Source: Raillietiella orientalis
Taxonomy: Eukaryota
Direction of reading: 5' to 3'
Assembly (NCBI GenBank): GCA_036172245.1
Contig: JAYWIR010000005.1
Coordinates: forward strand, 2,046,001-2,110,000
Length of the DNA: 64,000 bases
Each line of letters opens with the position of its first letter. The first letter of the stretch is position 1. The notes beneath the pieces are model-generated. The model saw nothing but the letters and a program-made list of their open reading frames with translations. It was not told where the DNA came from and did not search any database. Position numbers and translations under genes: made by a program. Of the stretch, positions 27,571 to 31,417 are shown piece by piece.

Positions 27571-28882
27571 GGTTCGACGCGGAAGGTCGGGTCGGCCAGC
27601 TTGTGCTCAAGTGGTCCGACTCGATCGACCCCGTCGTTACCAACGTCTATACGAGAGTGGCTGCCACCTGCATAGGGAACGGAAAGACTTTTTCGACTCC
27701 CTGAAGCGCGGATGGCTGGATGGCACAAGCGTCTGCAAGGCCCACCTGATTGCAGGCGATTTCAACGAGCGATGCGGATGCGTTTTTCCGTCTCTCTCGT
27801 TGTCAGACTTTCTTGGGCTTCATCTTGGTGTTGTGCGTCCAGAAGACGATGTCAACCCCATCTCAAGCCATAGAAGCTGGAGGAGCCACGCCCGCATCTG
27901 CAGCCGCGGAACCGATGGCCGCATCCACTTCGTCTTTCTCGCCAACGGCGAGAAGTTCTGCTGACGTTGCTGCAGCCGCAGCCTTCAAAGGGGGACACCC
28001 CGATGAAGCGGAGTGGCGGCCCAAGGCTACAAGCCCGCACTCCGTTATCAGGTGAGTGGGTTTCTTTCCGTCCTTTTTAAATAAATGCCCCGGCTTGACT
28101 GGGTGCCAATGTCGGAGAGCAATGCTCCGACTGGGAAAGAGGAATCGCCGGCATCAGCTTTTAAGGCAGGCGCTCAGGCAGCGCCTCAGGCGTCCACGCC
28201 TAAAATCGACGGATCGCTCGCGTGCAAAGGCGCCAGCGAATCGCAAGATCGCGACGGCGGATGGACGGTGGTGGACCGGAGCAAAAGGAAGAGTCTTCCT
28301 AAGAATGCTCCTCAGCCTCCGTCCGTCACGCTTTGCAGGGCGAAAAACTGACGCGCCCTGAAGACTTGCGCGAAGCTTCCAATGGCAAACCACGAAACAA
28401 TCATCCCCGGGAAGGAACGCTCGTCTCCTGGCAGCACCTTGAAGGCCGGTGGCGACCGTGCCCTCCAGCCAGTCGTTCTGCTCACCGTCCGCTCGCCGGA
28501 CAAAAGGAGCAAAAAAACGCCGCCTTCCCAGCTGTGATGCGGGGAATCGCGTCTTCTCGTCGTCTGTCCGTCGCGTGTTGGAACGTGAACGGTCTGCAGA
28601 ACGACGAGAAGAGGCGATTGGTAGCGAACGCCCTGCGCCCCTTCGACCTCGTGCTCCTGCAGGAGATTCACGTAATCTTCGACGAGCAGGCAGAGGAAAT
28701 CGAGGAGCGCGCAGGCGGTGCGGCGACCCACACACGGCGGCGTCGCGTTCCTCTCAAGAGGAAAATTGGCGAGAGCGGTGCGTGGCGTTCGATTCGACGA
28801 TGATGGCCTGGTGGGCCAACTTGTTGTCAAGTGGTCCGAGTCCATCGATCTCGTCGTGACGAACATCTACGCGCCGAGTGGC

Positions 28883-28963
28883 TCCAGCCACCTCATAACA
28901 TCTGCTGTGCTAATTGGCAACCAGACTTCGCCAAACTCTCGACCGATAGGTGGATTATACACA
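28883..28963 (+). repeat. 81-bp inverted duplicate of Rep segment 29782-29862
   Basis: Reverse complement of 29782-29862 with one mismatch (ATAACA vs ATATCA). Encodes QPPHNICCANWQPDFAKLSTDRWIIH on the + strand. Confidence 0.95.
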
Positions 28964-29446
28964 ACTCATCAGAAATATCTACCCCTGACATATGCTTCAT
29001 CACATGGAAGCGATTAAATCCAATGATAGCCTTTGTTTCAAAATCTAAACCACTGCCTCCACCACAATCTACCCAAGGGCACTCCCAATATCTATCTAAC
29101 ACAACTCCATCTACTGCCACTTTTTTCAACAAGTACGCCTTCCCGTCCACACGGACACCCCTTACACCAAAATAACGTGAGAAACAACCAAACGTCTCAT
29201 CATGAGCACCGACACGATTCATCACATCATTATAAGAATGCCCAGCCAAATTTCCAAAATGCTCTCCTTGAGCAGCAGCCTGATACAGTACCATATTTCT
29301 ATACGATGCTTTCATTCCAAACTCCTCCGCCATATTGCCAATCGTCAAATCAAGAGACATTGGCTCCACCTTCGTTGCGCAACCCTTAATCTTCACATAA
29401 CGGTAATAACGCGCATACTGTTCGAGGTTTAATTGCCTCAGTGTTG
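28962..29446 (-). pseudogene. cap: CRESS virus capsid, central part (inverted segment)
   Basis: Open frame with EQYARYYRYVKIKGCATKVEP and CPWVD, resembling the Y.YY.I....K..P and PW(I/V)D motifs of circovirus-like jelly-roll capsids. Confidence 0.7.
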
Positions 29447-29572
29447 AAAGAGGCGTGTCAGTCTGGTGTGTGCCCAAAAAATGGAAGAATGAGTAAGGGT
29501 TTTCCAATATACAAGGTGACCTCAAAGTATTATGTAATGTTTAAACATCTGAGAGATGTTGGTCTGTATTAA
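29447..29572 (+). pseudogene. cap: CRESS virus capsid C-terminus (not in the ORF track)
   Basis: Reads KEACQSGVCPKNGRMSKGFPIYKVTSKYYVMFKHLRDVGLY*. YYVxFK is the typical last beta-strand of CRESS capsids. The stop overlaps ATTAAA and converges on the Rep stop 30 nt away. Confidence 0.7.
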
Positions 29573-29602
29573 AGAGGCAATAACAAAATCAATATAATTG
29601 TT

Positions 29603-30707
29603 TTATCGGTCTACTGCATCGTAAGAGGTGGAGGGTGGTGACAATGTGAAAATGGATGATGGTGCAGGCGAGTCAGAGGCTTCTTCTGGTCTACAGCTTG
29701 AAGAAGAAGGCCATGGGAGAATGCTTCCATCTTCCCCAATCTGCCAAGGCACTTTTTTACTGAGTGAAGAACTGGCAATGCTGTGTATAATCCACCTATC
29801 GGTCGAGAGTTTGGCGAAGTCTGGTTGCCAATTAGCACAGCAGATGATATGAGGTGGCTGGAAGTATTTTAAACTCCCTTGATACTTTGAATCAAAGATG
29901 ATGCCGTTCTTCAAGGATTCGATGAAGCCGCACTGCACGTGCTCCATGTTGTCTTTGGTGAAGTCAACCATGATTATTCTTTCTCCATTATAAGGATGGG
30001 CCGCATCGGCTTTGCGGCGGGAATGCATGTAAATTGCGTCCTTCTTGAGAAATAGAAATTTTGCCATCGTCGTTTTGCCGATGTTGCCACGGGTATCGTA
30101 ATACCAGTGGATTTTTCGTTGGCTTGGCTTGCGGCGGATGATGTCCAATATATCCATCTGCCATTGCTTGAGTTGGAGATGTGCTATGGGGTTGGGGTGT
30201 TGTCTGGTCCGGGAGAGGCGGAAACATTCTTTAATAAAATTGATATTTTTAGAGTAGAACTGTGTATGGTTCTCAAGTATGTAAAGTTTATCCGCTACAT
30301 TCTTATTAATTGAAGTATCTAGGAGAGAAATAGTATTTGATTTTGTTGTCAGTGATTTTCGTTACGTACCTGCTCTTGATAAGACTTTGGTTCGACTGTC
30401 TCATTGAGTGCTCCGAAGGTCCATGGGTTTTTATCTTCTTTGCTGCAGTACCGTATGTTGCTCTGCGGCGTGCCCTTGGCTCGCTCGAGATGCGTCTTGT
30501 GGAAGGGTTTGCGGTGCAAACCTGGCAGCGTGCGAGGCTCTTTCAGTTGCATGTAGCCTTGCAAGTGCAGTGTTCCTGCTTCCGCAGTTTCTCAGCCGAA
30601 GCGTGCGAAGAGGCAGTTAAGTCGACACCCTTGTTTTATCTCTTTAAATTCGTCTCCTGTGTAGTTACAGAATGTGACGCACCAGTGGAAGTTAGAGCGT
30701 AAGGCAT
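29603..30707 (-). pseudogene. rep: CRESS virus replication initiator (HUH endonuclease + SF3 helicase), ~368 codons, three lesions
   Basis: Motif I WCVTFCN, motif II LHLQG, motif III YCSKE, LKQWQ, Walker A region YDTRGNIGKT, Walker B IMVDF, ESLKNGIIFDSKY, and motif C ICCAN. Lesions: frameshift just after the ATG (30707), in-frame TGA at 30592-30594, and a frameshift at ~30360. Confidence 0.95.
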
Positions 30708-30759
30708 GATTATCAGAAATTCACTGAAGGTGAGACTACGGTTCGGATGTAATCGATGG

Positions 30760-30767
30760 TTTATATA
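30760..30767 (-). promoter_or_regulatory. Putative rep TATA box
   Basis: TATATAAA on the minus strand, about 53 nt upstream of the rep ATG. Confidence 0.6.
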
Positions 30768-30802
30768 CTGGCTAACTGCGCAGTATTTTTAATTTTTTGT
30801 GA

Positions 30803-30834
30803 GCACAATCTGGTCAGTATTACCTAGATTGCGC
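30803..30834 (+). promoter_or_regulatory. Rolling-circle origin stem-loop with nonanucleotide CAGTATTAC
   Basis: GCACAATCTGG-T-CAGTATTAC-CTAGATTGCGC forms an 11-bp stem with one G-T and one A-C pair. The nonamer at 30815-30823 fits NAGTATTAC. Confidence 0.92.
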
Positions 30835-30875
30835 AGTAATCATCCGACGCCGTGGGAAATTGTTGTGTAAGCAGA

Positions 30876-30883
30876 TATTTAAA
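30876..30883 (+). promoter_or_regulatory. Putative cap TATA box
   Basis: TATTTAAA about 46 nt upstream of ATG 30922 (MRKAISFSAVVSGETRPRGRL), on the opposite side of the origin from rep. Confidence 0.4.
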
Positions 30884-31417
30884 GTGTCTGGTTTGTGTCC
30901 GCAGTCGTGGAAGACTTAGGAATGCGGAAGGCGATAAGCTTTTCAGCTGTCGTGTCTGGCGAAACCCGACCTCGTGGAAGACTCGTCTGCTTGCACTCTT
31001 CGAGCAAGTGTAGAGCCACTGGCTCAACACCACCGGCCCCCAAGTGGCGCACCTCGTCGCAGGGGACTTCAATGTCCACCTGCTCTCTGACGAATGGAGC
31101 TGCCGAGGGAGCGCTCGCTGGACATCGAGATGTGCGCGTCAGTGCGCTCTGCCAACTTGATGGTAGGCGTACCTGAGATGCCAAGATCGCCGGATCACAT
31201 CTTCCTCGATGACAACCTGCATTATCGTGTGGGGAGGAGAGGAAGATTGCCGTCCGGACTTTCTGACCATCACAGGTTGAAGTTCGAGCTCCTTTTGCAA
31301 GGCAAGGGACCTCCGTTGAACAACTGGAGGATGCCGGCGGACTGGCTTAGCCATCCGGAGGCGGCGGAACATCTCCCTCAGCACCTTCGGGGCTTCGTCA
31401 TTTGGGAGCTCGCTTCT

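Follow-up and report, generated by a model that had tools for sequence, protein, structure and literature searches.

The viral insert and its Rep gene

We analyzed a 64,000-nt stretch of the genome of Raillietiella orientalis (assembly GCA_036172245.1, contig JAYWIR010000005.1, positions 2,046,001-2,110,000, forward strand), here called the window and numbered from its first letter. Positions ~28883-30980 of the window are an endogenous, decayed circular Rep-encoding single-stranded (CRESS) DNA virus, which lies within the endonuclease region of a host long interspersed nuclear element (LINE). The G+C content of this region is ~37-47%, compared with ~58-62% around it. The insert contains a Rep gene, a replication origin and the body of a second open reading frame (ORF) that presumably encodes the capsid. 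It is not colinear: at least three viral fragments, which we designate F1, F2 and F3, are joined at microhomologies.

The Rep gene is located on the minus strand. Its superfamily-3 helicase (S3H) domain and C-terminal tail (29603..30157) match Rep of the IMG/VR contig IMGVR_UViG_3300030243_000461 with a phmmer E value of 8.9e-31. This contig, referred to below as L001, is the closest Rep relative (39% identity over the helicase). The helicase is also matched by phmmer to the Rep ORFs of all other loci fetched, and the Walker A and motif C positions are invariant in the alignment (A2), while Pfam RNA_helicase was found at E 0.0018, under its cut-off. Next comes a linker with an intron-like stretch (30158..30351, minus strand), on either side of which the reading frames differ, and then a decayed HUH endonuclease domain (30352..30705, minus strand). 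Pfam Viral_Rep (PF02407) matches the latter over 30352-30564 with E 4e-6 and 27.4 bits against a cut-off of 26, and phmmer connects the HUH part to the Rep of another locus, L012, at E 3e-9. Decay of Rep is evident from one in-frame stop at ~30592-30594 and from the start of the gene, where no start codon is in frame and the single one nearby belongs to another frame.

Relatives of this Rep comprised one protein in an index of 5.8 billion, nine IMG/VR loci at 27-39% identity and nine metagenome loci at 25-38%. The initial annotation, a reading of the letters made before our analysis, had described it as a non-circovirus-type Rep. This is half right: the N-terminal domain passes PF02407, and the nearest Reps, at 25-39% identity, are those of unclassified CRESS viruses.

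Two peculiarities of the gene deserve mention. The intron-like stretch at ~30302/30319-30369 (minus strand) opens with GTACGT, which is followed by a branch-like CTGAC, a run of pyrimidines and an AG. The phases mismatch with the first AG, while a second AG, located 17 nt beyond it, brings them into agreement. Rep is likewise found in two frames in two of the relatives, L002 and L013. Rep may be spliced. At the opposite end of the gene, 29603-29781 encodes a tail of ~60 residues rich in serine and proline past the conserved ...DRW core. Most Rep relatives end within ~10 residues past this core, while L001 is also long-tailed. An 81-nt fragment of Rep that is duplicated at the left end of the insert (F1, see below) terminates precisely at this boundary of core and tail.

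Origin and probable native genome layout

A stem-loop with the nonamer CAGTATTAC, of the nAnTATTAC type, in its loop (30815-30823) was found at 30803..30834 on the plus strand, opposite to Rep, by DNA folding. The energy of the hairpin does not reach significance by itself (z -1.58), and equally good folds were obtained from 12 of 200 shuffles. Two copies of an iteron-like sequence, TGCGCAGTA, flank the stem-loop on the plus strand at 30777-30785 and 30830-30838, and none of 100 shuffles gave two copies. Since an HUH Rep, an S3H domain and a nonamer stem-loop are all present, the insert derives from the replicon of a CRESS-DNA virus (Cressdnaviricota).

The position of Rep on the strand complementary to the nonamer is seen directly and depends on no model. 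Among the 18 loci of Rep relatives, a canonical stem-loop was identified in five, opposite Rep in two (L001 and L012) and on the Rep strand in three. L001 and L012 are the two loci which best match the N-terminal Rep piece 30352-30564. L001 is an ambisense circle of 2227 nt with a terminal redundancy of 79 nt. Its nonamer, also CAGTATTAC, is borne by a stem of 11 bp and lies opposite Rep, and the nonamer strand carries an ORF with a basic N-terminus, which is convergent with Rep across a 3' spacer of ~127 nt. This presumed L001 capsid has no relative in IMG/VR beyond its own contig. Both ORFs are on the same strand in five of the nine IMG/VR relatives.

A nonamer on the capsid-coding strand is the cyclovirus arrangement according to PMC8471302. 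The virus was likely ambisense in its native form, with the second ORF on the nonamer strand and Rep on the complement, a cyclovirus-like layout. The same layout had been proposed in the initial annotation and is reasonable, as the nonamer is opposite Rep both here and in L001 and as the base skew described below also supports it. In the present copy, Rep and the body of the presumed capsid gene share a strand, and it is composition together with L001 that points to the nonamer strand as its native place. Neither the presumed capsid gene nor Rep assigns the virus to Circoviridae or Cyclovirus: no Pfam family at E<=1 was found for either piece of the former, and the nearest relatives of the latter are unclassified contigs at 25-39% identity.

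The second open reading frame

A minus-strand ORF of 210 aa spans 28893-29525. Its 161 codons from 29444 to 28962 stay open in none of 20,000 shuffles, while the 22 codons at its end (28961-28896) read an inverted copy of a Rep segment in antisense. The initial annotation had considered this ORF a chimera and this is borne out at the latter end; the peptide ends it quoted are also correct. For annotation, the 210-aa ORF should be treated as a three-part chimera and not be named a gene.

The viral part, F2 (28962..29446, minus strand), is the body of the second viral ORF. It is 483-485 nt long, is inverted, and contains 161 codons without the 5' part of the gene and without a stop of its own. 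The minus frame stays open to 29540 and meets a stop at 29541-43; upstream there is neither a start codon nor a basic N-terminal region. As the 5' part of the presumed capsid gene is missing from the insert, the viral circle was opened in or near this gene, in line with the earlier proposal that it was opened inside it.

F2 was searched extensively for relatives. Pfam gave no family at E<=1, and none of 24 candidates from the 5.8-billion index scored. No match was obtained by patterns in IMG/VR or among PDB sequences at E<=10, and 87 pattern matches in JGI metagenomes yielded none that could be confirmed. The best score in the ESM Atlas was 0.88, without a family. Using phmmer against 1.84 billion representatives, two matches were obtained (E 1e-4 and 9e-4) and rejected as spurious, since they are to repeat units of proteins of 2251 and 4088 aa. 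A phmmer --max comparison with 218 ORFs of 19 loci with Rep relatives gave nothing for F2 at E<=1 and a single match at E 0.59 for the 41-aa piece discussed below. Single-sequence hhalign of F2 against nine presumed capsids gave probabilities of at most 1.6%, and a single-sequence AlphaFold2 model of 28962-29540 (minus strand) was unusable with a mean predicted local distance difference test (pLDDT) score of 33.5. The description of 28962-29446 as capsid-like thus finds no support from homology or fold. We use the name capsid as a presumption, which is based on position, this being the only other long ORF in a replicon of Rep plus one gene, and on a resemblance of motifs.

Fragments and junctions

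Starting from the left, the host/virus junction (28883..28894) consists of ~12 nt that are compatible with both the LINE and the Rep copy, the repeat beginning at 28883 and the host similarity reaching 28894-28897. F1 (28883..28963, plus strand, Rep-sense) is an inverted duplicate of the 3' core of Rep, a copy of 29782-29862. It is 80/81 identical to its source with the lone mismatch at 28898, and tblastn with Rep residues 97-126 finds it at 28876-28965. The first 12-15 nt of F1 also match the host LINE, so that the left joint falls in microhomology. Its last two bases (28962-63) are at the same time the first two of the segment that had been proposed to be inverted. F2 follows as described above, and F3 (29447 to ~30904) comprises ~1460 nt in native order: a 41-codon ORF, a spacer, Rep and the origin. 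The bases shared at the joints thus number ~12 between host and F1, 2 between F1 and F2, and up to 4 between F2 and F3.

The right junction zone (30905..30980) is of uncertain origin. These 76 nt beyond F3 have no counterpart in an empty-site paralogue of the LINE. A 12-nt direct repeat, TCGTGGAAGACT, occurs at 30905-30916 and 30972-30983, and its two copies enclose 55 G+C-rich nt. The enclosed nucleotides may be filler copied from a template or may encode the N-terminal end of the presumed capsid. A TATA-like ATATTTAAAG is located at 30875 and an ATG at 30923, the latter ~100 nt past the nonamer. Elsewhere in the insert, an 11-nt inverted repeat (10/11) at 29381-29391 and 29491-29501 has its centre at ~29441 and is nearly symmetric about the proposed junction of F2 and F3. 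It could be due to chance, as 15 such pairs are found in 2.6 kb.

Host LINE and public reads

The left flank of the insert (28303..28894, plus strand) is the endonuclease (APE) region of the host LINE, where Pfam Exo_endo_phos is seen at E 1.6e-4, under the curated cut-off. A second LINE copy at 27573-27674 has 77% similarity to the left flank up to 28897. The right flank is located at 30981..31346 (plus strand). Only one public run, referred to here as X1, is listed with part of the stretch (share 0.14), and no RNA run is listed. A 3755-nt paralogous LINE contig of X1, at depth 15, reaches 28894 and picks up again at 31008 with 27 different letters in between. This insert-free comparator is a paralogue and not an orthologous empty allele.

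X1 contigs without a difference from the insert cover 29349-29499 (151 nt, spanning 29446/7) and 29575-29810. These contigs are 2.5-4 deep, compared with 15 for the LINE flanks. The insert is thus chromosomal and at single-copy depth, and the 29446/7 junction is seen in reads, X1 being possibly the sample behind the window. Gaps in X1 cover, such as 29816-30191 and 30286-30943, are uninformative due to low coverage. X1 also holds diverged viral copies, with ~90% identity over 29253-29348 and more distant ones at 29073-29114 and 30215-30261. Since diverged copies of both viral genes are present, the virus lineage occurs more than once in the organism, either as further insertions or as a related virus. 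No other viral copy besides the 81-nt repeat was detected in the window by blastn or tblastn.

The window as a whole is repeat-rich eukaryotic DNA of decayed LINE copies, with just two ORFs of at least 250 aa in all 64 kb. The flanks of the insert are a decayed LINE with traces of Exo_endo_phos and RVT_1, which were seen, under cut-off, in two of 88 ORFs scanned with Pfam. A neighbouring ORF of 339 aa is adjacent to zf-RVT clusters in the ESM Atlas (score 0.97, mostly chordate), which we regard as a lead only. An Rfam scan of the window gave no match.

Orientation and extent of the second gene

Base composition supports the reading that F2 is inverted relative to the block of Rep and origin. 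Cumulative G-C along the plus strand falls over 28960-29401, is flat to ~29446 and then rises. A two-segment composition model trained on 28964-29300 places the switch at 29419, with 2-unit support for 29401-29426. Compared with 29419, position 29447 is 6.7 log units worse, and the two positions at which a minus-strand gene that ran on would end, 29541 and 29603, are worse by 17.9 and 21.5. The coding-strand GC skew of F2 is +0.41, compared with -0.10 to -0.42 for Rep on the same physical strand. In eight of the nine IMG/VR relatives the sign of the skew per physical strand is uniform over both genes, and in the ninth it is near zero. We had also considered G+T richness as a mark of the virion strand and rejected it, as the nonamer of L001 is on the C-rich strand. 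The sign of the skew is therefore not tied to the nonamer strand, and for this reason only its uniformity is used here, without an argument from deamination.

The initial annotation had explained the split gene by an inversion of 28962-29446. The orientation of this segment is indeed wrong with respect to Rep and origin, as skew and change-point indicate. A clean inversion does not fit as well: a simple two-break event leaves no extra DNA at its breakpoints, while here the left breakpoint bears the 81-nt Rep duplicate and an overlap of 2 nt. The inverted repeat 28883-28963/29782-29862 was absent from that account.

The extent of the second gene beyond F2 depends on an ORF of 41 codons plus stop at 29447..29572 on the plus strand. 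It is convergent with Rep, with a spacer of 30 nt between the two stops (29573..29602), and could represent the 3' terminus of the presumed capsid gene or else intergenic 3' DNA that codes for nothing. It exists as described in the initial annotation; its role there as capsid C-terminus has neither a homologue nor a fold behind it, and we put the odds that 29447-29572 is the true C-terminus of the second ORF at roughly even. Forty-one open codons are seen in 2.5% of shuffles. Under a model trained on F2, the plus frame is the best of six over 29447-29569 (-161.3, compared with -175.8 for the continuing minus frame). Three-base periodicity is weak (p=0.06 for that phase, 0.18 for any phase), and occasional low values occur in controls antisense to Rep as well. 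Other frames in 29447-29602 are open for 26-31 codons. When the 41-aa and 210-aa ORFs were compared with each other, no similarity was found. As the minus and plus frames are both open over 29390-29540 and the change-point is at 29419, the breakpoint is not pinned to 29446/7.

One possibility, which we consider somewhat unlikely, is that F2 holds the whole C-terminal part of the capsid and ends at or just past 28964. F2 would still be inverted, and the plus-strand ORF would be a chance frame within ~150 nt of 3' intergenic DNA, in keeping with the other frames that are open there and with the 3' intergenic region of ~127 nt in L001. If bases 28962-63 belong to the Rep copy, there is a stop at the 29447 junction. 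Compared by eye, 150 residues lie between 'YYRYVKI' of F2 and its end and 152 between 'LYREFKI' and the end of the L001 capsid, and the spacing in a solved circovirus capsid is presumably compatible with an end of F2 near 28964. However, the correspondence to 'LYREFKI' has no statistical support (hhalign probability 1.0%), and the capsids of relatives range from 253 to ~600 aa, which makes any argument from size weak. The break would also have to lie no more than a few codons from the stop, for which the prior is a few per cent, and the match of CAAC and GTTG at the ends of the proposed segment would be left as a coincidence.

That match is the basis of another explanation, in which a colinear integrated genome underwent one clean, CAAC/GTTG-mediated inversion of 28962-29446 and the capsid gene was exactly continuous across 28962 and 29447. 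We consider this unlikely. CAAC (28962-28965) and GTTG (29443-29446) are present where they were reported. A 4-nt match at fixed positions is expected at ~1/256 by simple arithmetic and is less striking given the free choice of boundaries. The break could have occurred anywhere in the gene without fine tuning, the 41-codon ORF with its low frequency in shuffles ends 30 nt from the convergent Rep stop, and its frame scores like F2 under the F2-trained model. The in-frame join without a stop that had been claimed exists only if 28962-63 are counted with F2. The same two bases belong to the Rep copy as well; assigned to it, they put the frames out of phase and create a stop codon at the junction. 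Furthermore, the left breakpoint must coincide with an older junction to the inverted 81-nt Rep fragment, which is left unexplained, the periodicity of the plus-strand ORF is not significant, and the composition change-point favours 29401-29426.

It is very improbable that there is no breakpoint near 29446 and that the ORF runs on along the minus strand through 29447-29540 in a unisense virus, only the 81-nt fragment being rearranged. Such a virus requires just one odd junction, the minus frame is open to 29540, and both ORFs share a strand in the five IMG/VR relatives mentioned above. But the frame ends upstream in the stop at 29541-43 with no start or basic N-terminal region, composition turns within 29401-29446, with 29541 being 17.9 log units worse, and the F2-trained model puts the minus frame 14.5 log units below the plus frame. 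In addition, the ORF and Rep, though on one strand, have skews of opposite sign, which is not the case in four of the five unisense relatives.

Inverted chimeras with microhomology are a typical artefact when DNA is amplified and in some long-read assemblies, yet an origin of the inverted pieces from such a chimera is hardly credible given the X1 contigs that match 29349-29499 and 29575-29810 without a difference, the decay mutations of Rep and the single-copy depth.

Proposed history of the insert

Taken together, the locus is probably an endogenous viral element in which the genome of an orphan CRESS-DNA virus is present at nearly unit length, its scrambled fragments having been captured in a break of a LINE and having decayed since. 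In this history, replicative-form DNA of the virus would have been broken. More than one molecule would have been involved, and at least two are needed because the Rep segment occurs twice. Microhomology-assisted end joining or template switching would then have linked the fragments at short overlaps, their orientation being random, and this would have happened at or near integration and not through a later clean inversion. The site of capture would have been a break within a host LINE copy, with decay setting in afterwards. It is possible that the zone at the right end is templated filler. The overlaps of 12, 2 and 4 nt and the inverted 81-nt filler point to repair driven by microhomology and not to a route mediated by Rep or by the LINE. 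The insertion seems fairly young, judging from the single mismatch over the 81 nt that the Rep copies share and from the two disabling changes in Rep.

Two other routes were considered and rejected. Recombination between the 81-nt arms, with a flip of 28964-29781, would not restore colinearity, as two odd junctions are still left. Reverse transcription of viral mRNA into cDNA by the LINE machinery is not consistent with the presence of the origin, of intergenic DNA and of the intron-like stretch.

Several observations weigh against the reconstruction that we prefer. Neither F2 nor the plus-strand ORF has a homologue or a usable fold as a capsid. In the relatives used for the skew comparison, the largest non-Rep ORF was taken as the capsid gene by our own assignment, and the sign of the skew differs between the nonamer strands of L001, which is C-rich, and of this insert, which is G-rich. 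The change-point at 29419 is 28 nt away from the proposed junction. Among the X1 pieces listed, only the joint of F2 and F3 is bridged by an independent contig, and X1 is possibly the same sample from which the window was assembled. Finally, the order of events cannot be read from one copy: joining at integration, a defective genome and later rearrangement are all conceivable, and the capture of an already rearranged defective genome would leave an identical picture.

Significance and comparison with known systems

Endogenous CRESS-DNA viruses are of a known kind. What makes this one notable is mainly how complete it is, along with an orphan second gene and the anatomy of the junctions. CRESS fossils that keep the origin, Rep and most of the second gene can link an uncultivated clade to a host and show how ssDNA viruses that do not integrate by themselves get into chromosomes. 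A bolder and rather doubtful interpretation is that the insert holds almost the whole genome of an unsampled CRESS lineage, with a second gene that has no relative in ~1.8 billion representatives and a Rep that is maybe spliced. If so, together with the diverged copies in X1, it would provide a host assignment and a fossil series for uncultivated viruses like L001 that have the nonamer opposite Rep. It would also be a worked example of the capture of replicative forms of an ssDNA virus into retrotransposon DNA by template switching or microhomology.

In vertebrates, most fixed circovirus sequences are derived from rep, as stated in PMC6372831. The insert resembles the endogenous circoviral and CRESS elements of eukaryote genomes, such as those treated in PMC6372831, in that Rep-derived DNA is fixed in a chromosome and carries disabling mutations. 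Unlike those elements, it retains the origin and most of the second ORF, lies within a LINE and is internally rearranged.

A parallel to the junctions can be found in Merkel cell polyomavirus, for which PMC7470373 describes defective or linear viral DNA that is joined to host breaks by non-homologous end joining (NHEJ) or break-induced replication mediated by microhomology (MMBIR). Microhomology at the joints and rearranged viral segments are shared with the integrations described there (PMC7470373). However, Merkel cell polyomavirus is a dsDNA virus that integrates in somatic tumour cells, while the mechanism proposed here is drawn from junction anatomy alone.

The closest resemblance is to L001 and genomes of the cyclovirus type, with which the insert shares a Rep with HUH and S3H domains, the nonamer CAGTATTAC opposite Rep, two convergent ORFs in its proposed native form and a size of ~2.1-2.2 kb. 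In contrast to L001, the copy in Raillietiella orientalis is chromosomal, rearranged and decayed, and its second ORF has no detectable similarity to the L001 capsid or any other. Its Rep possibly contains an intron, while Rep of L001 is a single ORF.

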